From: Candidatus Uhrbacteria bacterium
Lineage (GTDB): Bacteria; Patescibacteriota; Patescibacteriia; GWA2-47-26
Length of the DNA stretch: 64,000 nucleotides
NCBI GenBank assembly: GCA_016187515.1
Contig: JACPJN010000006.1
Coordinates: 128,856-192,855, forward strand
Direction of reading: 5' to 3'
The notes under the pieces were generated by a model. It was given only the letters and a program-made list of their open reading frames with translations, had not been told where the DNA came from and did not search any database. This document shows, piece after piece, positions 437-55,230 of this stretch (position 1 is the first letter of the stretch; every line of letters begins with the position of its first letter). The position numbers and the translations under genes are program-made.

Positions 437-1615
437 ATGGAAGAAAAACTTTATTACCAAGCCCTGGCGCGATTTGATAAAATCGGGCCGGTCAGGTTGC
501 GGACGCTCCTTAAGACGTTTCCCACGGTGCAGCACATTTGGGAAGCAAGCGCGCAGGAACTTGCCCACACCGGACTTGGCGAACAAGTCGCGGCGGAGTT
601 TGCGCTTTGGCGACGCGACCAAAATCTTGAAAAACAGTGGGAGGAGTTGGGGAAAGAAGGGATACAGGTTATTACATGGGACGACCAAAAGTATCCCGCC
701 CTTCTCAAAGAAATCCACGACCCGCCACATACATTGTTTGTGAGAGTTGCACGCCCCATTGTCCCCTCCCCTAGCCCCTCCCACATGGGGAGGGGGATTT
801 CCAATTCGTCCCTCCCCCTTGATGGGGGAGGTCAGGAGGGGGTGTTGCAAAATCCCTTTACCCTCGCCGTGGTCGGCACGCGCATGGCCACCACTTATGG
901 AAGACAGATCGTGGAACAGATTGTCCGGCCGCTGGCGCGCGCGGGACTTACTATTGTTTCCGGTCTGGCGCTGGGCATTGATGCGCTGGCGCATTGGGCT
1001 ACCTTGAATGAACAAGGTACCACGATCGCGGTGCTCGGTGGCGGATGCGACAGCGCGACAATCTACCCGACTTCCAATCGCGCGCTGGCCGAGCGCATCG
1101 TTGAGTCCGGGAGCGCGCTGATCTCCGAATATCCTCCAAAAACGCTTGCCATGCCATTTCATTTTCCGCACCGCAACCGCATTATTGCCGGAATGAGCCG
1201 CGGCACTTTTGTTATTGAGGCGGCCGAGGACTCCGGCTCGCTGATTACCGCTAAACACGCCCTCGAGCAGAATCGCGAAGTGTTTACGGTCCCGGGCGAT
1301 ATTACTCGTGACACTAGCAAGGGTCCCAATAACTTGCTTAAAATGGGCGCGCATCCGGTACTTTGCGCCGAGGATATTCTGGACGCGCTTAATCTGCAGG
1401 ATCTCAAAGCCACCGTGGAAGCCAAAAAAATCTTACCGGACGATCCGGTGGAAGAGAAAATTCTGGCGCAGCTAAGTGGCGACGCCATCCACATTGATGA
1501 GCTCATCCGGGAGACCGCGTTTGACGCGGCAAAATTATCCAGTGCCTTGACGCTGATGGAGATGAAGGGTAAAGTACGGCATATCGGAGGGATGAACTAT
1601 GTGCTCGCTCGCTAA
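437..1615 (+). CDS. dprA: DNA processing protein DprA (Smf)
   Basis: Translation MEEKLYYQALARF...LAVVGTRMATTYG...GLALGIDALAHWA...EYPP...NRIIAGMS...VIEAAEDSGSLITA matches the DprA Rossmann core plus C-terminal wHTH. ORF-track frame 17..1615 is trimmed to the first plausible ATG at 437. The upstream 140 codons are low-complexity. Confidence 0.88.
   Translation: MEEKLYYQALARFDKIGPVRLRTLLKTFPTVQHIWEASAQELAHTGLGEQVAAEFALWRRDQNLEKQWEELGKEGIQVITWDDQKYPALLKEIHDPPHTLFVRVARPIVPSPSPSHMGRGISNSSLPLDGGGQEGVLQNPFTLAVVGTRMATTYGRQIVEQIVRPLARAGLTIVSGLALGIDALAHWATLNEQGTTIAVLGGGCDSATIYPTSNRALAERIVESGSALISEYPPKTLAMPFHFPHRNRIIAGMSRGTFVIEAAEDSGSLITAKHALEQNREVFTVPGDITRDTSKGPNNLLKMGAHPVLCAEDILDALNLQDLKATVEAKKILPDDPVEEKILAQLSGDAIHIDELIRETAFDAAKLSSALTLMEMKGKVRHIGGMNYVLAR
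763..845. repeat. GC-rich palindromic element (CCCCTCCC...GGGGAGGGGG) inserted in-frame in dprA
   Basis: cccctcccctagcccctcccacatggggagggggatttccaattcgtccctcccccttgatgggggaggtcaggaggggg carries inverted CCCCTCCC/GGGGAGGG arms. It encodes the extra peptide PSPSPSHMGRGISNSSLPLDGGGQEGV inside DprA. It belongs to the same family as the copies at 8575, 11795, 12771, 19536, 24487, 35622, 37091, 55963, 57083, 58141, 62404 and 62860. Confidence 0.7.
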
Positions 1616-1619
1616 CACT

Positions 1620-2101
1620 CTGTGTACGAATTACGAATCTTGTTCGAACATTACGAATATGTCGGAAGGAAAGGTGAGAAATGAAAAGTTGGTTTTACCT
1701 GAGTTAAGTTATTCGATCATGGGTGCGATATTTGAAGTCAGCAATGAACTGGGCACAGGATATCAGGAAAAATACTACTATCGGGCAGTCAAGTCTGCAC
1801 TTGAAAAACGGGGACTTCAGGTAAAAACTCAAGTCTATTTGCCGATTGAGTTTCGGGATGCAAAAATCGGGAACTATTTCCTTGATTTCTTGATTGAAGG
1901 AAAGATTGTGCTGGAATTAAAAATAGGAAAAAGATTCAAAAAGTCCGACTTTGATCAGATACAAGCCTATCTGAGGGCAACCAACACACCATTAGGTATA
2001 ATCGTGCGTCTTGATAAAGATGGTGAGGTGGTGTATCATCGGGTACTTCCACCTAACAAAGATTCGTAGTATTCGTAAAGCGATTCGTAATTCGTACACA
2101 G
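1620..2101 (+). mobile_element. Inverted-repeat-bounded insertion carrying a GxxExxY gene, sitting exactly between the dprA stop and the topA start
   Basis: Perfect 20-bp inverted repeats: ctgtgtacgaattacgaatc at 1620-1639 and gattcgtaattcgtacacag at 2082-2101. The left repeat begins 5 nt after the dprA stop and the right repeat ends 1 nt before the topA ATG. Internal reiterations of the attcgta word occur next to both ends. Confidence 0.5.
1659..2069 (+). CDS. GxxExxY family protein (PD-(D/E)XK-like; this family is also found in 23S rRNA intervening sequences)
   Basis: Translation MSEGKVRNEKLVLPELSYSIMGAIFEVSNELGTGYQEKYYYRAV... contains the signature G-Y-Q-E-K-Y (GxxExxY) near the N-terminus. 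Size is about 135 aa. Start chosen at ATG 1659, in the ORF-track frame 1599..2069. Confidence 0.7.
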   Translation: MSEGKVRNEKLVLPELSYSIMGAIFEVSNELGTGYQEKYYYRAVKSALEKRGLQVKTQVYLPIEFRDAKIGNYFLDFLIEGKIVLELKIGKRFKKSDFDQIQAYLRATNTPLGIIVRLDKDGEVVYHRVLPPNKDS

Positions 2102-2102
2102 T

Positions 2103-4301
2103 ATGAAGCTGATTATTGTAGAGTCGCCCACAAAGGCGAAAACATTGTCTAGATTCCTCGGGCCTGACTTCACGGTCAAATCCTCCATGGGCCATATTCG
2201 GGATCTGCCCAAAAGCAACAAAGACGCCGTGGATATCGCGGCCGGCTTTGTGCCGCGCTACCAGATCTTAAAAGAAAAGCAAAGGGTTATCGGGGAGCTG
2301 CGCGAGGCCGTAAAAAAGGCGGATGAAGTTATTCTCGCGCCCGACCCGGATCGCGAAGGCGAGGCGATCGCTTGGCATTTGAAGGAAACCATTGGCCTGA
2401 AAAACCCAAAGCGCAGTGTTTTTCATGAAATAACCCAGCGCGCCGTCTCTGAAGCGCTGGCTCATCCGCGCACGATTGATGAAAAGTTAGTCAGCGCCCA
2501 AGAGGCGCGGCGCGTGCTGGATCGCCTTTTCGGGTATGATCTTTCCGGTCTGATTTGGAAAAAAGTGCGCTATGGACTTTCGGCCGGGCGGGTGCAATCT
2601 CCGGCTTTGCGCATCCTGATGGAGCGCGAGCGGGAGATCCGCGCCTTTGTACCGGAAAAATTCTGGGTCGTCAGCGCCAATCTCAAAACCACCAAAGGAG
2701 TATCCTTTACGGCTACTTGCGTGGAGGAACCAAAAACCGGTGAGGAAGCGGAGGCCATCGTGAAGGCGGCGCGCGCCGGCGCTTGGAGTGTTAAAGACGT
2801 GGAGGAGTCGCAGCAAAATCGCGCCGCGCGTCCGCCCTTTACTACTTCAACTTTACAGCAAACCGCGTCCACCCGCCTTGGATTTTCTCCGGCGCGCACC
2901 ATGCGCCTGGCGCAAAAACTCTACGAGGCCGGACAGATTACCTACATGCGCACCGACAGCGTACATCTGGCGGAGGAGGCGCAGAAAAATTTTATTGCGG
3001 TGATTAAAAAAGAATTCGGCGACAATTATGTTTCGCCGCAGCAATATATTACCAAGAGCAAGTCCGCCCAAGAAGCGCACGAAGCGATTCGTCCGACTGA
3101 TGGCGCAGTCCGCGCCTGTGGGTCAAATGCAGACGAGAAAAAATTGTACGCGCTGATCCGCGCTCGCGCGCTCGCTAGCCAAATGTCGGACGCTAGAGTG
3201 GCGCGCGCGAAAATAATCGCAAACGTTTCAAACGCGGCTATTCCGGACTTTTCAGCAAACGGTTCGCGGGTGATATTTGACGGCTGGCTTAAGGCCGACC
3301 CGGATGCCAAGGGCGTTGATGTCGAGCTTCCCAAAACCGCAAAGGGAGCAGCGCTCACGCTTATGGAGGCCAACTCCGAACCAAAAGAAACCCAGCCGCC
3401 CAACCGTTATACCGAGGCGGGACTGGTTAAAGAACTGGAAAAACGGGACATTGGACGGCCGTCAACCTATGCCTCCATCCTAAAAACGCTCGGGGACCGC
3501 GGCTATGTGGAAAAACAAAATCGCACGCTGCTGCCGACCGCGACCGGCGACGTAGTCAGTTCGTTTATTGAAGAAAATTTCGGCGACTACATCTCGGACA
3601 CCTTTACCGCGGAAATGGAAAACGAACTGGACGAAATTGCTGAAGGCAAGCGTGAATATGTAAAGACCCTAAAAGAATTTTACACTCCCTTCACCGCGGC
3701 GGTAAAGTCAAAATCCAAGATTCCAAAAATCACCAGCATGGGAGACGCGCCGAAAGAATTTCCCTGTCCGATCTGCGGCGGCCTGATGGAATACAAACTT
3801 TCGCGTACCGGACGTTTTATGAGCTGCAAACGCTTTCCGGAGTGTTTAGGCGCGCGGAAAGAAGACGGCGTAGAGATCGCGCCGCCAAAAGAGACCGGCG
3901 AGAGCTGTCCGGAGTGTAAAGCTGGCCAACTCATTGAACGCGAAGGACGTTTTGGACGCTTCATTGCTTGCGGCAATTATCCTAAATGCAAGTACATTAA
4001 AAAAGATCCGGCGGAAGAAGCCAAAACAAAAACCGGGGTGGCCTGTCCGGTGTGCAAAAAAGGCGAGCTGGTCGAGCGGCGCGGCAAATTCGGGCCGTTC
4101 TATTCCTGCTCCAATTATCCGGATTGCAAACACGCGATCAAAGCAAAACCAACCGGACGCCTCTGCACTCTGTGCGGCGCGCTTATGATGGAGGGAACCA
4201 AAACCATTCCGGAGCGATGCAGTAATAAGCAGTGTTCAATGCATAATCCCCTTAAACACAAGACGGCCCCAGTACCAAAGCCCGAAGAACATCTAGTGTA
4301 A
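2103..4301 (+). CDS. topA: DNA topoisomerase I
   Basis: The Toprim N-terminus MKLIIVESPTKAKTLSRFLG...DLP is typical, and the active-site region YMRTDS is present. The C-terminal zinc ribbons (CPICGG..CKRFPEC, CPECKAG..CGNYPKC, CPVCKKG..CSNYPDC) are typical of bacterial TopA. It sits in the conserved position downstream of dprA. Confidence 0.95.
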   Translation: MKLIIVESPTKAKTLSRFLGPDFTVKSSMGHIRDLPKSNKDAVDIAAGFVPRYQILKEKQRVIGELREAVKKADEVILAPDPDREGEAIAWHLKETIGLKNPKRSVFHEITQRAVSEALAHPRTIDEKLVSAQEARRVLDRLFGYDLSGLIWKKVRYGLSAGRVQSPALRILMEREREIRAFVPEKFWVVSANLKTTKGVSFTATCVEEPKTGEEAEAIVKAARAGAWSVKDVEESQQNRAARPPFTTSTLQQTASTRLGFSPARTMRLAQKLYEAGQITYMRTDSVHLAEEAQKNFIAVIKKEFGDNYVSPQQYITKSKSAQEAHEAIRPTDGAVRACGSNADEKKLYALIRARALASQMSDARVARAKIIANVSNAAIPDFSANGSRVIFDGWLKADPDAKGVDVELPKTAKGAALTLMEANSEPKETQPPNRYTEAGLVKELEKRDIGRPSTYASILKTLGDRGYVEKQNRTLLPTATGDVVSSFIEENFGDYISDTFTAEMENELDEIAEGKREYVKTLKEFYTPFTAAVKSKSKIPKITSMGDAPKEFPCPICGGLMEYKLSRTGRFMSCKRFPECLGARKEDGVEIAPPKETGESCPECKAGQLIEREGRFGRFIACGNYPKCKYIKKDPAEEAKTKTGVACPVCKKGELVERRGKFGPFYSCSNYPDCKHAIKAKPTGRLCTLCGALMMEGTKTIPERCSNKQCSMHNPLKHKTAPVPKPEEHLV

Positions 4302-8775: not shown

Positions 8776-8910
8776 AAATTCCAAATTACAAGCACCAAAA
8801 CACAAGGAAATTCCAAGCTCCAAATTACAAATTACCAACGTTTGAAATTTTGATATTGAAATTTAGGATTTATTTGTAATTTGTGATTTGTAATTTGGTA
8901 TTTTGGTAAC
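8776..8910. repeat. Long A/C-rich : G/T-rich low-complexity hairpin (ccaaattacaaatt ... atttgtaatttgg) in the parA-parB spacer
   Basis: The ggaaattccaagc(a/t)ccaa word array is followed by its inverted complement. A related element is embedded in the RNase P RNA at 42365-42500. Confidence 0.55.
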
Positions 8911-12002: not shown

Positions 12003-12899
12003 TCAATCCCCCAGAGATCGTTCTCCTTGAACTACGCTGAATCCCCACTTTAACAATTTGGCCATATCTTGAAAGCGCGCATCGTTGGTTTCACTTCCCA
12101 ACACCACCGCCATGAGTTCACTGCCATAGCTGCGCGCGGCAAATACTAAATTATATTTACTCTCTTCGATATGTCCGGTTTTTCCTCCTAGAATCGGGCC
12201 GTCGGGAGGATTAAACCAGCGTAATAATTGATTAGTAGCGTGAACTTCTCGAGCGGCTTTGCCTTTTGGCGCAAATTGAAACGAGGACTTAAGAACCGCT
12301 TCGCGGATTGGCGCGTGGCTTAAACTAAAACGGGCCAAAGCGGCGACCTCCCGAGCGGTACCGACATTTTCCGCGCGAAGTCCGGTCGGATCGGCAAACT
12401 TTAAACTGCGCAAACCAAGTTTTTCGGCTTTAGCATTCATGGCCAAGACCCCCGCCGCCTCATCTCCCAAAAAACTGCGCGTGAGCAGCATCGCGGCGTC
12501 GTTGGAAGAGGCCGTAAGCATCAGGTTCCAAGCGTCAACGACCTTAAGCTGTTCTCCTGGAATGAGATAAGCAATATCGCCGTTACGGCGATCTTGTGCT
12601 TCAAAAGTTATAAGGCCATTCCAGTCCGGATTTTTATCCAGTAGCGCAAGCGCGGTCATTAGTTTAGTAATGCTCGCGATCGGCCGGACGGTATCCGCAT
12701 TCTTGGAGTGCAAAATTATTCCTTCCGTGGTATCCGCCAGAAACACGCTCTCGGCCGAGAGTGAAGGCAACTCCCCCGCTCCCCCTCTTAAGTTAAGAGG
12801 GGGTGGCCCGCCCGAGGCGGGTAGGGGGGCGTTATGCAACGTCTGCACGGCTAGAAATGCTCCCACCGCGGCAAATAAAGAAGCGAGCTGAAGAAGCAT
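12003..12899 (-). CDS. D-alanyl-D-alanine carboxypeptidase (peptidase S11, PBP5/6-like)
   Basis: SxxK (ASITKLMT), SxN (SSND) and KTG (GGKTG) motifs are in the correct order, with an N-terminal signal peptide. An in-frame palindromic insert at 12771-12832 (ccccctcttaagttaagaggggg) lies near the N-terminus. Confidence 0.8.
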   Translation of the reverse strand: MLLQLASLFAAVGAFLAVQTLHNAPLPASGGPPPLNLRGGAGELPSLSAESVFLADTTEGIILHSKNADTVRPIASITKLMTALALLDKNPDWNGLITFEAQDRRNGDIAYLIPGEQLKVVDAWNLMLTASSNDAAMLLTRSFLGDEAAGVLAMNAKAEKLGLRSLKFADPTGLRAENVGTAREVAALARFSLSHAPIREAVLKSSFQFAPKGKAAREVHATNQLLRWFNPPDGPILGGKTGHIEESKYNLVFAARSYGSELMAVVLGSETNDARFQDMAKLLKWGFSVVQGERSLGD

Positions 12900-12964
12900 A
12901 GCAATTGAAGCGAGACAAGTAAATCAGGTAAAGCAAGCAAGTCAAGTAACTTGATTCACTTGAT
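12900..12964. repeat. TTGATTTACTTG-type low-complexity hairpin spacer
   Basis: gcgagacaagtaaatcaggtaaagcaagcaagtcaagtaacttgattcacttgatttactt. The same word family fills the spacers at 13925-14010, 14570-14665 and 15030-15085, and occurs in-frame in rluD at 62265-62310. Confidence 0.6.
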
Positions 12965-13513
12965 TTACTTATTTTGCTCAAGCAAAGTGGTCATCACCTC
13001 ATGTCCGTGCAGCGCTCCGTAGTCCGGGAGCTCTTCCACCAAGCGGACCCCCAGATAGCGGAGAAAATCCATGCTCACCCGAATCCGATTTTCCTTACGC
13101 ACGGCATCATATTCTTCGTCAATCAGCCCGCGGATTAAGAGGTTGCGCAAAATCAGCCCGCAGCTGACCCCGCGGATAATCTCCAGCTCGCCTTTTGAAA
13201 TCGGGCCCCGATACGCGATCACGGTCAGGGTCTCCAATTGCGGACGCGTCAGTTCTCCGGCAAATTCCTCTTTTACAAAGGCCGCGACCACGGCCGCGGT
13301 TTCTCCCGCGGTCCCCATTTGCCAATTTTTACCGGTTGAAAAAATCTGCAATCCGCTGGCGCGCGCTTTGTATTCCTCCTGCAGTTCTTTTAAGGCCTCC
13401 CCGACCCGCGCTTCTTTTTCTCCGACAAATTCGGCGATCTTTTTTATGGTCATCGGCCGGCCGGCCACAAACAACAGCGCCTCAAGATTTGATTTAAGCG
13501 TCATAATTCGCAC
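12965..13513 (-). CDS. scpB: segregation and condensation protein B
   Basis: LEALLFVAGRPMTIKKIAEFVG is followed by tandem wHTH-like halves typical of ScpB. Length 182 aa. Confidence 0.8.
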   Translation of the reverse strand: MRIMTLKSNLEALLFVAGRPMTIKKIAEFVGEKEARVGEALKELQEEYKARASGLQIFSTGKNWQMGTAGETAAVVAAFVKEEFAGELTRPQLETLTVIAYRGPISKGELEIIRGVSCGLILRNLLIRGLIDEEYDAVRKENRIRVSMDFLRYLGVRLVEELPDYGALHGHEVMTTLLEQNK

Positions 13514-13515
13514 CT

Positions 13516-13986
13516 CTACCTCTTTTTCTTAGGCAGATATTCTTCGTATTTTTTTCTTTCCGCCAGCTGCGCGTATTCTCGTTTGTAGTTTTTCAGCACA
13601 CCTTTCAAAATCACCGCAAACCAAGAAACGGTAATCAAAAAAATCAGCAGCGTCCACCCTCGCGCGGAAAGAATCACGGCGCCGACTTGTCTGGACCAAA
13701 TCAGTATCAGCATAAACGCCGCGAAAAACCAGAATGGACGGCTAAGTTTGGAAAGCCCGCGGGCCAGCGGCGGATTATCTTTTTTCCGGCGGCTTAATAT
13801 CTTAAAGACAATTCCCCCGCCAATAAACAAGGCCACGACAATAATCGCGGCAATAAAAGAAAACCGACGCAATGGCGGAGTATATACCGCAAACCAATAA
13901 GAGAGGTGCAATAGATTGGTAAATTGCATGCGAGTAGGTAAATCAAGTAAATTAAGTAAAGCAAGTAAATCAAGGGCTTGATTCAC
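13516..13986 (-). CDS. hypothetical membrane protein (about 4 TM helices)
   Basis: Hydrophobic segments FIAAIIVVALFIGGGIVF, FWFFAAFMLILIW and LLIFLITVSWFAVIL. No family recognised. Confidence 0.5.
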   Translation of the reverse strand: MNQALDLLALLNLLDLPTRMQFTNLLHLSYWFAVYTPPLRRFSFIAAIIVVALFIGGGIVFKILSRRKKDNPPLARGLSKLSRPFWFFAAFMLILIWSRQVGAVILSARGWTLLIFLITVSWFAVILKGVLKNYKREYAQLAERKKYEEYLPKKKR

Positions 13987-14009
13987 TTGTCTCGCTTGAC
14001 TTGCATGAT

Positions 14010-14567
14010 TTACTTTTTCTCAAAGACAATGCCGAAGTGATACGGGCCGGCCTCGAATTCCTCGCGATACTCAAATCCGGCTTCTTGAGCCAGTTGCCGC
14101 GCCGTCGCTGGCGCGATGCGCCGCTCCGGAGGAGGACCCAAGGGGCTCGCGGTTTGCTTCCAATCGCCAACCAGCAGCGTGCCGCCGGATTTGGTAATCC
14201 GCGCCGCCTCGCGCAGGACTGCCGCGCGGGCCGGAATTTGAGAAAGATCATTGACGAGCACCGTCAGATCCGCGGAACCATCCGTAATTTTCAGCGCGCC
14301 CGGTTTTTCCAAATCCGCCCACACGGTTTCCACATTATCCACTCCTTCGAGCTTGGCCCGGCTGCGGATCGCCTCCAGCACGGATTTCAAAATATCCACC
14401 GCGTACACCCGCCCGGTCGGGCCGGTCAGATGCGCGGCGGGAAATACAAAATGCCCGGAGGTACCGCAGGCCAGCTCCGCGACAATATCCCCCTGTTTAA
14501 TGCCGGCGCGGGTCAGGAGTTTCACCGCGTCGATTAGCTCGTTGCCGCCGTGGAATCGAATGGACAT
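14010..14567 (-). CDS. class I SAM-dependent methyltransferase
   Basis: Motif I VAELACGTSGHF, followed by acidic motif II VYAVD and motif III-like LLVGDW. The start is moved to MSIRFHG (14567), because the upstream 15 codons of ORF-track 14010..14612 are encoded by the intergenic repeat. Confidence 0.7.
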   Translation of the reverse strand: MSIRFHGGNELIDAVKLLTRAGIKQGDIVAELACGTSGHFVFPAAHLTGPTGRVYAVDILKSVLEAIRSRAKLEGVDNVETVWADLEKPGALKITDGSADLTVLVNDLSQIPARAAVLREAARITKSGGTLLVGDWKQTASPLGPPPERRIAPATARQLAQEAGFEYREEFEAGPYHFGIVFEKK

Positions 14568-14608
14568 ACGATTGCAGTAAAGCAAGTAAATCAGGTAAAT
14601 CAAGTGAA

Positions 14609-15028
14609 TCAAATGCTTGATTTACTTGACTTGCTCGTCTCGCCTGATTTACTTAATTGATGAGTATTATCCTTCTGACTTTGAATCCATCGCCGTAATT
14701 TTTTACTTACCTCCCCTCCAAGCGCCTCAATACTAGTATACTGTGCTTTATCAATATAGCCAAGCTCACATGCGACCATCAGCTGATATCGTACCTCCTC
14801 TAAGGAAGCATCGGCAATATTGTAAAAGTGGAGACTATCATATACTGACTTTCTGTGAAAGCCCTCTACAATATTGGATGCTACAGATAGCGCGGCACGA
14901 CGTAGCTGTGATACAAGGCCGTACATCTCATGTGGTGGAAACTTTGCAGTAAGGCGATACACTTCTACCACAAGTTGATGTGCTTTCTGCCACACCTGTA
15001 AATCCCTAAAGGTACTGATCTGTGCCAT
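14609..15028 (-). CDS. four-helix-bundle protein (23S rRNA intervening-sequence protein / Avd-like family)
   Basis: FRDLQVWQKAHQLVVEVYRLTAKFPPHEMYGLVSQLRRAALSVASNIVEG matches the family consensus. The C-terminal tail (SKSGETSKSSKSS) is encoded by the TTGATTTACTTG repeat, so the true stop may lie earlier. Confidence 0.75.
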   Translation of the reverse strand: MAQISTFRDLQVWQKAHQLVVEVYRLTAKFPPHEMYGLVSQLRRAALSVASNIVEGFHRKSVYDSLHFYNIADASLEEVRYQLMVACELGYIDKAQYTSIEALGGEVSKKLRRWIQSQKDNTHQLSKSGETSKSSKSSI

Positions 15029-15076
15029 ACAACCTGATTTACTTGATTTACCCGTGATTTACCTGTCTCGCTTGAT

Positions 15077-15322
15077 TTACTTCAACCCAAACAACCTCCC
15101 AAAAATCGCCAAACCAATACTTTGCAAAATTCCGCTCATGTAGAAAAACGAGAGCAAGATGATCGCCACCCCCGCTAATTTATAAAATAGCCGCGAACCG
15201 CCTTCGGTTCCCAAATGCTGCTCGGCCCAAGCGACCGGGCCAAGCGAATTATATAATTTTTCCGAATAAATTACGATAAGCGCCCCGACCGCGGCTCCGA
15301 TTAACGCGAAAATATAACGCAT
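15077..15322 (-). CDS. small membrane protein (2 TM)
   Basis: MRYIFALIGAAVGALIVIY... and VAIILLSFFYMSGILQSIGLAIFG. No family recognised. Confidence 0.45.
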   Translation of the reverse strand: MRYIFALIGAAVGALIVIYSEKLYNSLGPVAWAEQHLGTEGGSRLFYKLAGVAIILLSFFYMSGILQSIGLAIFGRLFGLK

Positions 15323-19666: not shown

Positions 19667-19698
19667 GCTTCTAACGGGTAAATGCAGTGCGGCCGCAC
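19667..19698. repeat. 32-bp perfect palindrome GGTAAATGCAGTGCGGCCGCACTGCATTTACC (NotI core); copy 1 of 3
   Basis: Perfect dyad symmetry. T-rich tract follows on the plus strand. Related copies lie at 27236-27268 and 28038-28070. Confidence 0.7.
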
Positions 19699-19879
19699 TG
19701 CATTTACCGTTTGTTATTTTCTGTAAATTTTTGTTTTCCTGAATCACGGCTTCTTAAAAAAAGACCGCACGACCCTAAGAAAGGTGTGCGGGGCCCGCGC
19801 GAGAACGCACGCGCAGGCAAGATCGTCTCCGCCACTTCGAGGCGGCTTTCGCCTCTTCGGGGCGGGTTTGCGGAAAGAG

Positions 19880-23406: not shown

Positions 23407-23513
23407 GCCTCCGTCCCGACCGTGGTCGGGACTCGGACTTTTCTCCTCGCTTTGAGTATAGTGCATATATGATAATTTGACAATTAGCTTCGCGATAATT
23501 GGTGATTCGATAA

Positions 23514-23921
23514 TTAGCCGCTTAGCGGCGATGATTTGCGATTGGTATTGATTTGTTTGCGTTGGTAATGCGCCTCAATATAGCGATTAAGTTTGGGCGC
23601 CAATCCCTGTATCATTCCGTTACACTTCTGAAAAAATGCTTCCGCTATTATACCGCGCTCTTTCATAAGCCCCAACCAATGCAGTGTTTCATAAAGAGAA
23701 CCCCGTGCATTATATAAAAATTTTATTTTGTCTAGATAGTGAAACCTCCCATGGGCTTCTGCAATATTCGCGCCTACCGAATCAATCGCGGTAATCCACT
23801 GATCCCCGATAATTTTTCTTGTATGCCATTCAAATGTTTTAAATGTGTTCCAACTTTCGCGCGATAATTCCCGTGCAATATTGTAGACCTCAATTTTATG
23901 CAAATTAATTTCCCCCTGCAT
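23514..23921 (-). CDS. four-helix-bundle protein (23S rRNA IVS / Avd-like family), second copy
   Basis: IAIDSVGANIAEAHGRFHYLDKIKFLYNARGSLYETLHWL matches the conserved core of the family (N..EG..R....D...FL..A.GS..E...). Confidence 0.65.
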   Translation of the reverse strand: MQGEINLHKIEVYNIARELSRESWNTFKTFEWHTRKIIGDQWITAIDSVGANIAEAHGRFHYLDKIKFLYNARGSLYETLHWLGLMKERGIIAEAFFQKCNGMIQGLAPKLNRYIEAHYQRKQINTNRKSSPLSG

Positions 23922-24021
23922 ATAAATTCAATTCTCCTATCATCCAATCACCCAATCTCGTCGGCTCCGCCGACCAATTATCGTTCGCGAAGCGAACAAA
24001 TTATCCAATTATCCAATCATC

Positions 24022-25797
24022 TCAATGCCTCGGCAACTCCACTCCTTTGCCGCCTTCGCCCATCTCTTCCGCCGAGAGCGGCGGGGGGCCGGAAAGCGGG
24101 AGTATAAAAATAAATGTTGAGCCCTGGCCGCGGCCGGGCGACTCGGCCCAGATTTTTCCGCCGTGTTTGTCAATAAACATTTTTGCAACGTGCAGACCCA
24201 GCCCGCTGCCCTCAATCGGCTCGCCTTCGCGCCGGCGCATCGTTCCGCTCGCCGCGCGCCTGAATTTTTGGAACAGCACCGCGATATCTTCCGGCTCCAA
24301 ACCGAGTCCAGTATCCTTCACACTCACCTTCACCCACCCTTGCGAATTATCTAATTGTCTAATCATCGAATTATCCAATTCACACGTTACAGTAATCGAT
24401 CCCTTCATCGTATACTTTATCGCATTATCAATAAGATTGACAATCACATGCCGCATTTTTTCCTCATCAAATTTAACCAGCGGAATCCCCTCCAATTTTC
24501 CCCTCTTTTCCAAGGAGGTTTTCCTCCCCTGCCCGAGGGGAGGCGAGGAAGGGTGGGAGGGGGTGGTTCGACCACCCTCAAACGTCAATTTCAACTTTTT
24601 CTGCGCCGCGCGCGGCTGATATTCCTCCACAATATCTTTGACCAACGCGCACAAATCCTGCTCTTTGAAATTATATTTCATCTTGCCCAACTCAATACGC
24701 GAAACATTCAAATACTCACCAATAAGATTTATAAGCCGCGTCGCGCTTTCCGCCATTTTTTTCATGGCATCAATCTGCCGCTGATCTTTAACCTCACCAA
24801 ACGTACCATCAAGCATAGCCGCCAGCCCCAACCGCACCACAGTTAACGGACTGCGCAACTGATGTGAGGCCATAGACAAGAAATCTGTCTTGGCCTGATC
24901 CAACTCCTGGAGCTTCGCATACGCCACCTCCAACTCATTCTTCAACCTCTCCATCTCCTCACGACGATCTACCTCACGAATAACACTTCGTATCAAAAGA
25001 TAACCAAAATAAAGAAACAGTACGAGCACTATGCTTCGGAGGAATGCCTCGAATCTCGTCTGTGAGAAAAATAACTGGAAAAACAGTACAATAAATATGG
25101 CAAATACTAGCACCTCCGTGGCAATGACCTTAATACGCAAAAGTTGATAGCGAAATACTCCTATCGCAACAAAGGTGGCAAACAATGGTACACTGAAGTT
25201 TAAAATAGGATATACATCTATCTCAAAGACCGGAAAAAATGATGGGGTACCACCCGCAAAACCAAGCCCAGCGCCTAAAAGAACGTATAGTATTTGTGTT
25301 CGTTTAGGTTCGACACTCTTCAAAAATGCCCTTACCAACCAATAATGGGCCATCAAAACTGCAACTACAAAGTAAGCAGTAAATGCAGAGTATAAAATGG
25401 TGGGTGGCGAATCATAGTAAAATTGTCCGAATGTGTAACGCACACAACAAATAAGAGCGCCAGTTAAGTTAGTCAATCCAAAAAGGATAGCTAGGGTGTA
25501 ATTTATTAATACAAGAAATCCTCGCTTCTTCTTATCGATAAAAACAAGCACGAAGTGAAAAAGAAAAGCCGGGATCATAATGACCCCAACGTGTGTAAGT
25601 CGCCATAAGAACAACGACTGTGACGGATCTTGTTCACGCGCGATAAAAAATCCCCCGATACCCCATAAGGAAACCACAAATGTAAACAAGGCAAGGAGCC
25701 AACGATCCTTTTCTCGTTGGGCATTGATAGCAATTAAGATGGCTAACGGGATAGAAATAACCGCTATCAAAATGCCATTCACAGCAAAAGCATTCAT
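24022..25797 (-). CDS. membrane sensor histidine kinase (orphan; no response regulator adjacent)
   Basis: Roughly 7 N-terminal TM helices. HisKA H-box SMASHQLRSPLT. HATPase_c motifs DNAIKYT and GSGLGLHVAK. An in-frame GC-rich palindromic insert at 24487-24575 sits between HisKA and the ATPase domain. Confidence 0.85.
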   Translation of the reverse strand: MNAFAVNGILIAVISIPLAILIAINAQREKDRWLLALFTFVVSLWGIGGFFIAREQDPSQSLFLWRLTHVGVIMIPAFLFHFVLVFIDKKKRGFLVLINYTLAILFGLTNLTGALICCVRYTFGQFYYDSPPTILYSAFTAYFVVAVLMAHYWLVRAFLKSVEPKRTQILYVLLGAGLGFAGGTPSFFPVFEIDVYPILNFSVPLFATFVAIGVFRYQLLRIKVIATEVLVFAIFIVLFFQLFFSQTRFEAFLRSIVLVLFLYFGYLLIRSVIREVDRREEMERLKNELEVAYAKLQELDQAKTDFLSMASHQLRSPLTVVRLGLAAMLDGTFGEVKDQRQIDAMKKMAESATRLINLIGEYLNVSRIELGKMKYNFKEQDLCALVKDIVEEYQPRAAQKKLKLTFEGGRTTPSHPSSPPLGQGRKTSLEKRGKLEGIPLVKFDEEKMRHVIVNLIDNAIKYTMKGSITVTCELDNSMIRQLDNSQGWVKVSVKDTGLGLEPEDIAVLFQKFRRAASGTMRRREGEPIEGSGLGLHVAKMFIDKHGGKIWAESPGRGQGSTFIFILPLSGPPPLSAEEMGEGGKGVELPRH

Positions 25798-27007: not shown

Positions 27008-27235
27008 TGTCTCCTCCCCATCGGGATTGTTAAGTTGTTGATGAACCAACTTCCTCCTAACCTCTCCTCCTACCCCATTAAAGCACAAAATGGGGCTTTT
27101 GTCAAGTTTTGCACACGATGAACGCATCGAGGGGCGATGGGACCCCACACCGCCCGCCGGGGCGCCGGATTGACCACGCCAGAAAGATTGCGAAGGAAAC
27201 CATCGCAAAAACCTCCGCCACCCTCAACCAAATAC

Positions 27236-27268
27236 GGTAAATGCAGTGCGGCCGCACTTTGTTTACCA
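27236..27268. repeat. NotI-core palindrome copy 2 (ggtaaatgcagtgcggccgcactttgtttacc), in the divergent promoter region between the SDR gene and the PaaX-like gene
   Basis: Read directly from the sequence. Confidence 0.6.
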
Positions 27269-27397
27269 CAATGGGATTTACTTGACAAAATTCCGGTGGC
27301 CAACTTTTGTGCGGTAGGGTACAATTAAATTGGTACGCTAGACCAGGACAGCGCGCGGACAGTAAGGAACCCCGATCTCAGCGCGTCCATAAATAGT

Positions 27398-27967
27398 ATG
27401 CCCAGAAAAAAGAAAAACCCATCCTCGAAGTTGCGCGAGCGGCTGACCGAGGCGCGCTGCTGCTTGCAAGAACTCGCCGGAATGCTGCACTGGGCCTGCT
27501 CCGCTAAAAATTACATCCCTTATGGACTCTATCAAGAAACCAAACGCGAGCAACTGCATAAGGAGCAGCGTGAACAACTGCAATATCTAAAGCGGAGGAA
27601 ACTCATCGAGATAGCAAAGATTGGAAAACGCCTGAACGTGCGTCTCACGGACAAGGGATGGACCGCGGCGCTTCGGGATAAAATCAAAACCACCAAAACG
27701 CGATGCAAAAGTGGACGCTGTTTTCTTCTTTTTGACATTCCGGAAAAAGAACGCGCCGTGCGCAACGTACTCCGCCAATTTCTCAAAGAGTGCGGATTCA
27801 TCCATCTGCAGCACAGCGTTTGGATGACCGATCGCGACGTAATCGAACCATTGCGTACACTGCTCCAGCGCAGAAAACTCGAGCGCTGGATTCGTATCAT
27901 TGTAGGCGATATTGTGGCCGCCTCTCCTCTTGACCGGCTCGTTATCCGTCAAAACTACCGCCGCTAA
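27398..27967 (+). CDS. PaaX-like transcriptional regulator (wHTH + Cas2-like ferredoxin-fold segment), tentative
   Basis: RLNVRLTDKGW resembles the PaaX wHTH (YRLTDAG). CFLLFDIPEKERAVRNVLRQFLKECGFIHLQHSVWMT resembles the PaaX/Cas2-fold segment (W.LVVFDIPE..R..RDRLRR.L.WLGFG.LQ..VW). It is the only plus-strand gene inside the surface-protein locus. Confidence 0.4.
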   Translation: MPRKKKNPSSKLRERLTEARCCLQELAGMLHWACSAKNYIPYGLYQETKREQLHKEQREQLQYLKRRKLIEIAKIGKRLNVRLTDKGWTAALRDKIKTTKTRCKSGRCFLLFDIPEKERAVRNVLRQFLKECGFIHLQHSVWMTDRDVIEPLRTLLQRRKLERWIRIIVGDIVAASPLDRLVIRQNYRR

Positions 27968-28037
27968 GGGGACTGCTCCGCTGTACTCGCCTATCACACC
28001 AGCGTAAACCCTCAAGATAAACCCTCAAACAAACACG

Positions 28038-28070
28038 GTAAATACAGTGCGGCCGCACGTTATTTACCGT
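28038..28070. repeat. NotI-core palindrome copy 3 (ggtaaatacagtgcggccgcacgttatttacc), between convergent gene ends
   Basis: Read directly from the sequence. Flanked by A-rich and T-rich tracts, consistent with a bidirectional terminator. Confidence 0.6.
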
Positions 28071-28251
28071 TTATTTTTGACGGCAAGTTTTTGTTTTATG
28101 GTTTTATGGAAAGTACTCCAATCCGATTCTTGGTTATCCTGAATAACTCAATAAAAAGAAAAAAGCCCACGTGTGTTCAAGACACGCAGGCCAGAGCGTA
28201 CCGCCGCGAAAAGGCGGCTTCCCGCCTCCTCGTGGCGGGTTTGCAAAAGAG

Positions 28252-53134: not shown

Positions 53135-53144
53135 TCGCGGAATT

Positions 53145-54695
53145 ATGAATTATGAATTAAGAATTATGAATATACGGAGATCGATTCTCCGTGGCCACGG
53201 AGAATCGATCTCCCGATTTTTCCTACTCCTTACTCCTTATTCCTTATTCCTAATTCTCACGCTTGCTCTACCAGCGCAAGCCCAATCCCTGCCCCAACTT
53301 AAAACCTTTTGCTTTACCCAAGACGAGTGCGTTTCCCCGCCCTACAGCGGCGAGGCCAAAGAAGCGCCGGAATGTCGTGACCAAGATCCCCGCTATGTCC
53401 AGGCCGGCTATCTTTACAACTGTTACGCCAAACAGCAGCCCATCCGCCTGGAGGTCGGGATTGGCCCGTATAAAGTCGCGGGCATTGAGGATTATATCCG
53501 CCGACTCTACATTTATCTCATTGGCATCTCCGGAATCGTGGTGGGCGTGATGTACACTTGGGCCGGCTTAAAATGGCTAACCTCGGGCGGAGCTCCGGAC
53601 AGAATCACGGACGCGAAAAAGAAAATCGGAAACGCCACGGTCGGGCTCGTGCTGCTGCTCTCCTCCTACCTGATTCTCCAAACCGTTAATCCCGCGCTCG
53701 TGCGTCTGCGTTTGCCGGCCCTGAAGATGCCCCGCCAGGTTCTCTTGGGGGACGACTTGTGTGTAAATCGCCCGGAATATCCCTGCGGCGGATTAAAATT
53801 GCGGCCATCGCTAAGCCAGGATGGGCTGGGTCAATGGCAAGTCGCTCTGCTCGATCCCCTGCTCCGGGACAGGAAATATCAATGTGATGACCCCAGTAAT
53901 GCGGACTTGGCGCGTAACCCGCCTTGCCAAGACGGAGTCGGCTCCGGCGCTTGCGTACCCCGCTTCTGTCCATTTCCGGGATGCTATACCCTGCTTGAGG
54001 ACCGGATTACTGAAGATGCTCAAGATGTTATCGAGGGCATCGACGAGTATCAAGAAGCTCGCGATGCTGGACTGAATGTTCCCACTGGAACGAGCGATGC
54101 TGAGGTTTTGGAGCTGATCACGACTTTCCGCGAACAAGCCAGCCAAAATCAACGGATGTGCGTTAAACCGGAACAGTGCGGAGGGTGCGCGGCCAATACT
54201 CCCTGGGCGGTCTGTGTCTCGTCTGCTTGTCCCTGCATACTGGATGTAAAAGAAATTGGCGGGGAAGATCAGATCGTTTGCGCCGGCCGGCGAGGTGAAG
54301 GTCAGCCCTGCGAAAGGCATGAGCAATGCCAAGGCCAAGGCCAAGGCGGCCGAGCCGGACGCTGCAACTTTGGCCGCATACCTAATGAATGCACTCCGGA
54401 AGGAGGCGAGCCACCCGGACAGCCCTGCGATGTTGATGGCGATTGCGCAAGCGGGCTATGCAATGAGAATGCCGCGACAGATGTATGCGTTGCTCCGCAA
54501 TCGCTCCGCATTGGAGAGGATTGTTCTTCCAGCGAAGAGTGTGTTACCGGGGTTTGCGGATATGAAGGCGTGATTAGCACTCTTAATCCCGCCTCTGACC
54601 CAGTTTGTATGGCGGCAGGACAATGTAACGGTCTAACCCGAGTTGGCTGTCCTTGTGAAACTTCCATCAACTGCAATACGAATACCGGGGATTAA
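53145..54695 (+). CDS. secreted/membrane protein with VirB2/TrbC-like two-helix hydrophobic hairpin and C-terminal Cys-rich domain (tentative)
   Basis: Signal peptide FFLLLTPYSLFLILTLALPAQA. The hydrophobic helices IYLIGISGIVVGVMYTWAGLKWLTSGG and IGNATVGLVLLLSSYLILQTV are separated by a short polar loop. The long C-terminal region has more than 30 Cys. Start taken at 53145 within ORF-track 53043..54695. Confidence 0.4.
   Translation: MNYELRIMNIRRSILRGHGESISRFFLLLTPYSLFLILTLALPAQAQSLPQLKTFCFTQDECVSPPYSGEAKEAPECRDQDPRYVQAGYLYNCYAKQQPIRLEVGIGPYKVAGIEDYIRRLYIYLIGISGIVVGVMYTWAGLKWLTSGGAPDRITDAKKKIGNATVGLVLLLSSYLILQTVNPALVRLRLPALKMPRQVLLGDDLCVNRPEYPCGGLKLRPSLSQDGLGQWQVALLDPLLRDRKYQCDDPSNADLARNPPCQDGVGSGACVPRFCPFPGCYTLLEDRITEDAQDVIEGIDEYQEARDAGLNVPTGTSDAEVLELITTFREQASQNQRMCVKPEQCGGCAANTPWAVCVSSACPCILDVKEIGGEDQIVCAGRRGEGQPCERHEQCQGQGQGGRAGRCNFGRIPNECTPEGGEPPGQPCDVDGDCASGLCNENAATDVCVAPQSLRIGEDCSSSEECVTGVCGYEGVISTLNPASDPVCMAAGQCNGLTRVGCPCETSINCNTNTGD
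53177..53224 (+). terminator. 38-bp perfect palindrome + T-tract (ggagatcgattctccgtggccacggagaatcgatctcc cgattttt), a terminator-like structure lying inside the 5' coding region of the next gene
   Basis: Read directly from the sequence. The only in-frame ATGs for the downstream secreted protein (53145, 53166) lie before it. Confidence 0.5.
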
Positions 54696-54841
54696 AGGTA
54701 ACTATATAGATATCGTCCTAAAGGCAATGAAAGAGCCCTTTTACGGGCTCTTTTAGTTATCCACCCTCGACATCTTGACACCGTTATGCTACCCTTGATT
54801 CTGGTTAAGTCATCCGTCGTCAGACATCTGTTCACCGTATT

Positions 54842-55207
54842 ATGCCGTTTAGATTTGAGGATTTGCGAGTATACCAGCGTACTCTCGAACTTGTTGACCA
54901 TATCTATGATGTTGTGGATAAATTCCCTACTCACGAACTATACACCCTCTCGTCGCAGTTACGGCGTGCTGTAATCTCAATTCTTTTAAACATAGCGGAG
55001 GGTACAGGACGAACCAACAAGGAATTCGCGCATTTTGTAGACATGTCAAGAACTTCTGCATACGAATGCATCGCATGTTTGGCGATCGCGCTACGTCGAA
55101 AATACATCACGCAACAATCCTATGAAACACTCTATGCTGAAATAAACGAGATTGTGAGAATGCTTAATGCCCTCAAAAATAGTATCAACAACAATACGGT
55201 GAACTGA
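54842..55207 (+). CDS. four-helix-bundle protein (23S rRNA IVS / Avd-like family), third copy
   Basis: [53 protein letters not shown] matches the family consensus closely. Confidence 0.8.
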
Positions 55208-55230
55208 AGACGGTGAACTGATGTCTCAAT

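Follow-up and report, generated by a model that had tools for sequence, protein, structure and literature searches.

How a small gene enclosed by perfect inverted repeats comes to fill, almost to the nucleotide, the junction between two conserved genes is the question raised by a 482-bp segment located between dprA and topA in Candidatus Uhrbacteria bacterium (Patescibacteriota; GenBank assembly GCA_016187515.1, contig JACPJN010000006.1, positions 128,856 to 192,855 of the forward strand; this whole stretch of 64,000 nt is hereafter called the window). The segment carries a gene of the GxxExxY family, and a first-pass annotation, made from the sequence alone, had proposed that it is a small mobile cassette, possibly homing by its own nuclease. 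According to the analysis presented here, the segment is probably an old and vertically inherited copy of a family of palindromic elements of Patescibacteria, similar to the intervening sequences (IVSs) of rRNA, either selfish or domesticated, which is read through by transcription and whose arms would be processed as RNA. Of the mobile cassette, a notion that suits the family and its remote past, what stood is the discrete unit, with the same arms at other sites, gene-less hairpins and an empty spacer in the relative L009, while recent mobility at this place was not seen, the copy being ancient and fixed. In the literature, no paper was found describing GxxExxY cassettes, their arms or their gene-less derivatives, and the element family is apparently undescribed.

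Both the GxxExxY proteins (PF13366) and the four-helix-bundle proteins of 23S IVSs form large and widespread families with no known function, and the origin and spread of IVS elements is a question standing since the 1990s. The two protein families ride one common vehicle, in which a promoter-less open reading frame (ORF) is enclosed by short tandem units arrayed in inverted orientation, and this vehicle is found also between protein-coding genes, where it abuts start codons. The arms of the GxxExxY type are conserved in sequence far beyond the neutral expectation and have gene-less derivatives; the 40-nt arm consensus and its defined termini provide concrete substrates for an uncharacterised nuclease family, and the arrangement offers a possible explanation of how insertions are tolerated at leaderless start codons in the compact operons of Patescibacteria.

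A nuclease gene between two arms

The features of the junction are the following (window coordinates, strand, description):

437..1615, + strand: dprA, the upstream neighbour (PF02481, PF17782; TIGR00732, 234 bits)
1620..1658, + strand: left arm, with terminal (C)TGTGTAC and four units, abutting exactly the start codon of the ORF
1659..2069, + strand: GxxExxY gene, 136 aa (PF13366, 99.2 bits, cut-off 22; TIGR04256, 95.3 bits, cut-off 35)
2062..2101, + strand: right arm, with four ATTCGTA units (2062, 2071, 2083, 2090) and terminal GTACACA(G)
2103..4301, + strand: topA, the downstream neighbour (TIGR01051, 707 bits)

The dprA stop codon (TAA, 1613-1615) is separated by 4 nt from the left arm; the GxxExxY ORF, the only one within the 482-bp segment, begins at the first base past that arm and ends with a stop codon (TAG, 2067-2069) placed inside the right arm, from which 1 nt leads to the topA ATG (2103). 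By inspection of the sequence, no Shine-Dalgarno sequence fits between the right arm and this ATG. The outer parts of the two arms form a terminal inverted repeat, CTGTGTACGAATTACGAATC at 1620-1639 and GATTCGTAATTCGTACACAG at 2082-2101, which is complementary at 20 of 20 positions and is accompanied by an inner block in which 1645-1658 pairs with 2062-2075 at 12 of 14 positions. Each arm, about 40 nt in length, is made of four copies of a heptamer with the core AC-N-AAT, with TGTGTAC as its terminus; in the left arm, the units are TACGAAT at 1625, 1632, and 1652 and a degenerate TTCGAAC at 1643. The 20-mer of the terminal repeat was found at just these two sites in the 64 kb, with up to 3 mismatches allowed, and a chance origin is ruled out, about 0.01 matches being expected by chance in a sequence of this length. 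All coordinates given in the first-pass annotation for the segment, its perfect repeat and its fit to the dprA-topA spacer were confirmed, as was the presence of the GxxExxY gene alone inside; the protein length is 136 aa, not the 137 aa reported there.

Since several independent assemblies contain this very sequence, the cassette is not an assembly artefact; to the left of dprA, every contig carrying the window's cassette gene ends about 320 nt past the edge of the window. A promoter or a terminator belonging to the cassette itself was considered and rejected, the consensus scans performing no better than on shuffled sequences, and Rfam, with E up to 1, returned no match for the cassette of the window. 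The predicted RNA fold retains the long-range stem between the arms (z = -4.8).

The motif which gives the family its name corresponds in the window protein to G34-YQ-E37-KY-Y40. Invariant among 24 homologues are E37, D76, E86, K88, Q100, and Y104, the last two forming a Q100-xxx-Y104 pair; we take the E, D and ExK residues to be the catalytic set of PD-(D/E)XK nucleases, and the QxxxY motif to be typical of their RecB/Cas4 branch. The first-pass annotation had called the gene PD-(D/E)XK-like, and the residues of that set (E37, D76, E86, and K88) are among the invariant ones. In the AlphaFold (AF2) model, with a predicted local distance difference test score (pLDDT) of 90, the core has an alpha-beta-beta-beta-alpha-beta topology, and the best Foldseek matches are Cas4 SSO0001, lambda exonuclease and MGME1, accompanied by the nuclease domains of AdnAB and AddAB; tRNA-splicing endonucleases match the model more weakly than the group of Cas4, lambda exonuclease and MGME1. 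A comparison by sequence with solved structures gave no match for the GxxExxY protein. Taken together, conserved residues and modelled fold point to a minimal RecB/Cas4-like PD-(D/E)XK nuclease; in a survey of the PD-(D/E)XK superfamily, PF13366 is listed as "unknown" (PMC3424549).

A role as a defence system was considered and set aside: PADLOC gave for the nuclease a weak Cas4 match and nothing else, and PHROGs gave nothing. Among orthologues, dN ranges from 0.13 to 0.35 with dS saturated, and the protein has therefore been kept functional over a long time, under purifying selection.

The arms at the junction and elsewhere

The history of the junction was followed in related loci and genomes (indicated by L-numbers, the window genome being W). 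The first-pass annotation had called the adjacency of dprA and topA widely conserved, and indeed the two genes are adjacent, dprA first, in 62 of 80 related genomes of Patescibacteria; their spacer measures 9 nt to 1.9 kb in relatives and harbours unrelated genes in different lineages. L003/L088, L004-L007 and L008 are about equally distant, with dprA about 70% and topA about 80% identical. An orthologous GxxExxY gene is found at the same junction and between the same arms both in L003/L088 (81% amino acid identity) and in L004-L007 (71%); the same gene at the same place without inverted repeats, which the first-pass annotation would have read, together with a unique occurrence of the repeat, as favouring an old vertically inherited gene, was not encountered, the repeats being conserved in these relatives. 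In L008, which is the sister of W in the topA tree, ((W,L008),(L003,L004)), the junction holds a 115-nt gene-less hairpin of ACGAAT units, the edge of which is located 2 nt before the topA ATG; on this tree, the lineage of L008 has lost the ORF and retained the arms, which shows that an element of this type can persist as a gene-less hairpin after losing its ORF. In the more distant L009, dprA and topA are separated by 9 nt and the spacer is empty of the cassette. The most parsimonious history is that an ancestor of the Uhrbacteria group acquired the cassette in this spacer and passed it on vertically, with loss of the ORF in one lineage. Because cassette and arms are orthologous in relatives whose synonymous sites are saturated, the copy in the window is ancient and of vertical descent.

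Some variation around this junction deserves mention. In L004, an additional ORF of 102 aa (1833-2141), with predicted membrane helices and no family match, is enclosed by the arms and precedes the GxxExxY gene; the element, which totals 804 nt in that genome, can take extra cargo, as this ORF inside the arms demonstrates. In relatives free of the element, a TTGACA-N17 -10 promoter ends about 10 nt before the topA ATG; in the Kaiserbacteria-type loci L010, L017, L018, L020, L034, and L036, the promoter-like sequence TTGAC(A)-N17 -10 is placed about 60 nt before the topA ATG and ends about 10 nt before the start, which suggests that the topA mRNA may be leaderless or nearly so in these relatives. 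The leader of dprA (270-436 in the window) follows a conserved promoter, TTTGTCAAGAGGT..GGTATACT, and the repeat inserted in it differs in each relative, being an inverted repeat TGTCATCCCGAGCGCAGCGAGGGATC...GAAATGACA in W, a TACGAAT hairpin in L003 (2520-2650), and other palindromes or direct repeats in L004 (520-650) and L008 (1500-1650).

Arms of the same type are found at other sites as well. Homologues at 62-70% identity, enclosed by TGTGTAC...GTACACA arms, are located between map and ruvX in L123, upstream of a gene resembling those of aminoacyl-tRNA synthetases in L122, and upstream of a gene for an unknown 453-aa protein in L121; the homologue in P0003 is placed after map (a statement on the position of the gene, the arm termini and units having been read in L121-L123). 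Hairpins with matching arms and no gene accompany some of these cassettes, namely one in L121, one between ruvX and recO in L123, and two in L003, each located exactly between a TATACT -10 box and an ATG (of pth and of dprA, respectively). Coding and non-coding copies at different sites have, in other words, terminal inverted repeats in common, which is what is expected of transposons and their miniature inverted-repeat transposable elements (MITEs). Hairpin and cassette share the unit variant of their genome (ACAAAT in L123, as opposed to ACGAAT in W and L003), and one arm of hairpin B of L003 is 95% identical to an arm of the L004 cassette, across different genomes. These observations show arms and gene to have been inherited and relocated jointly, as a discrete unit. 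A gene-less hairpin of the same unit type, not matching the flanks of the cassette, is present in the window, in a short spacer next to gene ends:

8808..8898, no strand assigned: gene-less hairpin of TACAAAT-type units, the same unit type as in the GxxExxY arms

When the 22 arms of 11 elements are aligned, the consensus is TGTGTACGAATCnACGAATnTnnTACGAATACTACGAAT and 16 columns are invariant; between genomes in which the four-fold degenerate sites of topA have reached saturation, at 40-44%, arm identity is 65-95%. The pairing between the two ends of an element holds from TGTG inward and collapses directly outside, and the covariation between arms is 0.257 against 0.149 in shuffled data, a value reached by none of 500 shuffles, slid controls giving 0.03-0.15. 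Strong constraint acts on the arms, which co-vary, changes in the one being mirrored in the other. A vector of phage origin was looked for by scanning viral contigs for the terminus pattern and was discarded, the 14 matches being all single arms in unrelated sequence, as expected by chance.

The layout is general among GxxExxY genes. Significant inverted arms flank 30 of the 32 genes retrieved by homology (29-81% identity), with three to five units of core AC-N-(A/G)-A-(T/A/C) and a total element length of 436-561 nt. Neighbouring genes are co-directional with the cassette in 56 of 58 cases (26 of 28 upstream, 30 of 30 downstream), and the edge of the right arm is no more than 10 nt away from the next ATG in 23 of 29, the median distance being 2 nt; the unit variant tracks the clades of the protein tree. 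Two further and distant cassettes conform to this description, that is, L144 and L143, the latter located upstream of polA, between the -10 box and the ATG. The first-pass annotation had stated that GxxExxY genes are known from 23S IVSs, and this could not be verified: no rRNA was found in the window region or in 37 loci with GxxExxY relatives (0/37), at which Rfam gave nothing at gathering scores, and the literature consulted names in IVSs the four-helix-bundle protein alone.

When 112 small genes of the window and of 80 control loci are compared, these cassettes prove to have the strongest flanking inverted repeats; one further high scorer is a neighbouring gene placed between two hairpins of the cassette type. 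Other small genes strongly flanked by repeats were examined and found to be different, since L080:2021-2407 and window 27398-27967 code for PaaX/Cas2-like proteins and are flanked by self-palindromes, GGTAAATGCAGTGCGGCCGCAC in the window (27221-28083, 19677-19708) and AAGTAAGCCATGGCTTACTT in L080 (1990-2470), which look like operator sites. In a plasmid search for GxxExxY genes outside Patescibacteria, only two distant matches were obtained, neither with inverted arms on both sides; the gene of L142 (Gemmatirosa plasmid, 1501-1854) has a hairpin of CGCGGAT-type heptamers downstream, on one side only, and that of L141 (Fusobacteria plasmid, 1513-1887) is flanked by direct repeats of about 50 nt, not by inverted arms.

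Four-helix-bundle cassettes and other repeats in the window

The same layout, with different units, is found in the window around three genes of the 23S_rRNA_IVP family, which code for Avd-like four-helix-bundle proteins:

14577..15082, - strand: 23S_rRNA_IVP four-helix-bundle cassette (PF05635, 127 bits), with inverted arrays of GTAAATCA
23471..24023, - strand: second 23S_rRNA_IVP cassette (PF05635, 75 bits), with inverted arrays of GATAATTG
54805..55229, + strand: third 23S_rRNA_IVP cassette (PF05635, 118 bits), with 37-nt inverted arms of CAGTTCACCGTATT units

The right arm of the third cassette stops 1 nt before the uvrA ATG (55231), and four-helix-bundle cassettes of like layout occur also in L008 and L090.

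Further repeats were noticed in the window. Hairpins or half-arms of a GTAAATC family occupy four consecutive spacers (12901-12981, 13935-14010, 14577-14655, and 15030-15082) in an array-like arrangement around scpB, a membrane protein gene, a methyltransferase gene and a four-helix-bundle gene. At 53139-53250, in a short spacer next to gene ends, a gene-less hairpin is made of GAATTAT / CTCCTTA heptamers around a second palindrome. G+C-rich palindromes, CCCCTCCCC...GGGGAGGGG, are inserted in frame in dprA (755-850), in uvrA (55231-58155) and in an ORF at 12003-12899 (- strand), where they yield peptides such as PSPSPSHMGRG...; these may be elements like the Rickettsia palindromic elements (RPEs). 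The RNase P RNA at 42446-42962 matches the full 367-position model over 517 nt, which suggests about 150 nt of additional sequence in its gene.

Readings of the element and known systems

The reading that is favoured here, although with room for doubt, takes the element to be composed of two inverted arms of about 40 nt around a promoter-less gene for a putative nuclease of 130-136 aa, some 450-560 bp in all, located either in a spacer of a few nt whose two flanking genes run in the same direction, or downstream of a -10 box and ahead of a start codon. As its placement is promoter-less, co-directional and abutting a start codon, the ORF would depend on read-through and the arms would act in the transcript. 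The GxxExxY gene would thus be expressed by read-through of the dprA-topA transcript, in which the arms may pair to form a stem of at least 20 bp plus 12-14 further pairs, with the ORF in the loop. This stem could be cut by the RNase III of the host, a processing step which is suggested by the predicted fold and by analogy with IVSs; the cut would free the mRNA of the nuclease and leave topA with a 5' end of 1-3 nt, effectively leaderless, and insertions could be tolerated right at start codons because a cut at the base of the stem would restore a near-leaderless mRNA. Relocation of the unit to new sites would be rare and would take place in DNA, the arms serving as the ends that are recognised; the most likely partner in relocation would be the encoded nuclease, and this is the weakest link of the proposal.

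Several observations weigh against this reading. Neither a recent insertion nor a close empty site was found. No target-site duplication was found, the flanks of the 11 elements being without repeated bases and similarity ending at TGTG, and no known transposase family was recognised, PF13366 giving the only matches in the cassette and PHROGs nothing. Mismatches between arms are G.U in 41 cases and A.C in 42 (18 and 18, respectively, when isolated ones are counted), and since G.U is not favoured over A.C, selection for pairing specifically in RNA is not demonstrated; judging from the arm sequences, a strand-symmetric constraint acting on DNA, or concerted evolution, would account for the data equally well. 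Moreover, the AC-N-AAT units are kept in sequence beyond the need of a plain RNase III stem; because of this conservation and of the lack of G.U bias, a sequence-specific recognition, possibly at the DNA level, must exist. Gene-less copies were not found within +/-10 kb of the distant cassettes L143 and L144, nor did the window contain any gene-less hairpin of the GxxExxY type besides that at 8808-8898; the rnc gene, coding for RNase III, was not found in the 64-kb window, which is uninformative for a piece of this size. Finally, the four-helix-bundle cassettes share the layout without encoding a nuclease, and a nuclease in cis is therefore not required for the architecture.

A rival explanation takes the element to be an active DNA transposon or a homing cassette, whose nuclease reads the AC-N-AAT arrays, cuts the TGTGTAC termini or empty targets, and moves or copies the cassette, the repeats being transposon ends rather than an RNA stem. 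The terminal inverted repeats with four conserved subterminal units in each arm, the absence of G.U bias, the presence of the same unit at several sites together with MITE-like gene-less derivatives, the divergence of the unit sequence along with the protein clade, and the intact PD-(D/E)XK and QxxxY set on a fold predicted to be Cas4-like all agree with it; it is nevertheless unlikely, since the copy at dprA-topA stayed put while synonymous sites became saturated, there is no target-site duplication and no pair of identical copies at two sites, the co-orientation with neighbours (56/58) points to a dependence on host transcription, and four-helix-bundle cassettes have the same layout with no nuclease encoded. 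The variety of sites is against homing to one allele in particular, and classical homing to a single cognate allele, as copies sit at differing sites, would fit poorly. A host gene of vertical descent, flanked by halves of the hairpin that its own product recognises, could alternatively maintain a few gene-less hairpins that serve the host from operon spacers and 5' leaders, for example in the processing or stability of mRNA, after the manner of a domesticated system of REPINs (hairpins formed by repetitive extragenic palindromic, REP, sequences) and RAYTs (REP-associated tyrosine transposases). Vertical inheritance with purifying selection, arms which flank the gene in inverted orientation as REPs flank RAYT genes, gene-less hairpins carrying the arm variant of their genome (ACAAAT in L123; ACGAAT in W and L003), and the location of the L003 hairpins between -10 box and start codon speak for this explanation, to which we attach little credence given that gene-less copies are few (0-2 in 3-20 kb, with L143 and L144 having none nearby), that L008 retains the hairpin without the gene at the dprA-topA site, and that the enzyme is not a Y1 transposase.

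A last alternative, an ordinary old host gene whose flanking repeats are merely regulatory (operators for autoregulation, or a processing or attenuation hairpin) and which has no history of mobility, is very improbable and already disfavoured: the position is stable within the clade, and a target-site duplication, a transposase and an identical second copy are all lacking, yet the same 40-nt arms flank homologues at no fewer than four unrelated loci (>=4), they form gene-less hairpins elsewhere, the junction is empty in L009 and occupied by unrelated genes in other Patescibacteria, and an arm of hairpin B of L003 is 95% identical to an arm of the L004 cassette, in a different genome. Beyond the preferred reading of an old, vertically inherited element that is read through, a broader proposal may be advanced tentatively, as a possibility that we judge less than probable, namely that hairpin-armed mini-elements form a new class with GxxExxY proteins as its enzymes: a minimal Cas4/RecB-like nuclease would read the AC-N-AAT arrays and maintain or move the cassette and its gene-less hairpins, in a partnership similar to that of REPINs and RAYTs but of another catalytic chemistry, and the ORF-bearing IVSs of rRNA would be the same vehicle, inserted in rRNA rather than in operon spacers.

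Among the closest known counterparts is the ORF-bearing 23S IVS of Coxiella burnetii and Leptospira (PMC4990558). That of C. burnetii, 428 nt long, has inverted repeats and tandem GACAGAT heptamers beside a four-helix-bundle ORF and is removed by RNase III, which cuts at the first repeat (PMC4990558); four-helix-bundle ORFs are reported also from rRNA insertions of bacteria of the candidate phyla radiation (CPR) (PMC11270868). IVSs and the present element have in common a length of about 430-500 nt, inverted repeats whose pairing yields a long stem and places a small ORF in its loop, tandem heptamers beside this ORF (GACAGAT in Coxiella; TACGAAT, CACAGAT and others here), the lack of a good Shine-Dalgarno sequence, and vertical inheritance after rare acquisition; moreover, three cassettes of the window encode the IVS protein family itself (PF05635). 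In contrast, the host molecule is here the mRNA spacer of an operon, between dprA and topA, and not helix 25 or 45 of rRNA; the ORF codes for a putative PD-(D/E)XK nuclease (PF13366) rather than for the 23S_rRNA_IVP four-helix bundle, and is under strong purifying selection, whereas that of Coxiella is decaying; and excision by RNase III, which is shown for IVSs, would here follow from a predicted stem. Not being located in rRNA and carrying an ORF of another family, the segment is not an IVS in the strict sense.

With REPIN-RAYT systems, the element shares a single gene flanked by inverted copies of a repeat, the co-variation of repeat and gene by lineage, and vertical inheritance; gene-less hairpins that match the flanks of the gene occur in intergenic spacers of the same genome in L003, L121, and L123, while none was found within 20 kb in L143 and L144 and none in the window matches. 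The element differs in the enzyme, which is RecB/Cas4-like and not an HUH/Y1 transposase, in the arms, which are 40-nt arrays of four units and not 20-nt REPs with a GTAG head, and in the apparently low copy number of its hairpins. Pairs of MITEs and autonomous elements, and the Correia repeat enclosed elements (CREE) of Neisseria, whose transcribed copies are substrates of RNase III, resemble it in having terminal inverted repeats, short non-coding derivatives and insertion beside genes (PMC2649163), but here there is neither a target-site duplication nor a recognisable transposase, and copies are very few and stay long at one site. Unlike an integron cassette, which has a single 3' attC with an integrase and attI, the segment has two non-palindromic half-arms on either side of its ORF and dprA and topA as neighbours. 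A small nuclease encoded inside a selfish insert is known from PD-(D/E)XK homing endonucleases (e.g., I-Ssp6803I); the present case involves neither intron nor intein, different genes serve as insertion sites, and no evidence was found for the cleavage of an empty allele by the cassette nuclease. The locus between dprA and topA links three groups of elements, the IVSs of rRNA, MITE-like hairpins and REPIN-like systems.

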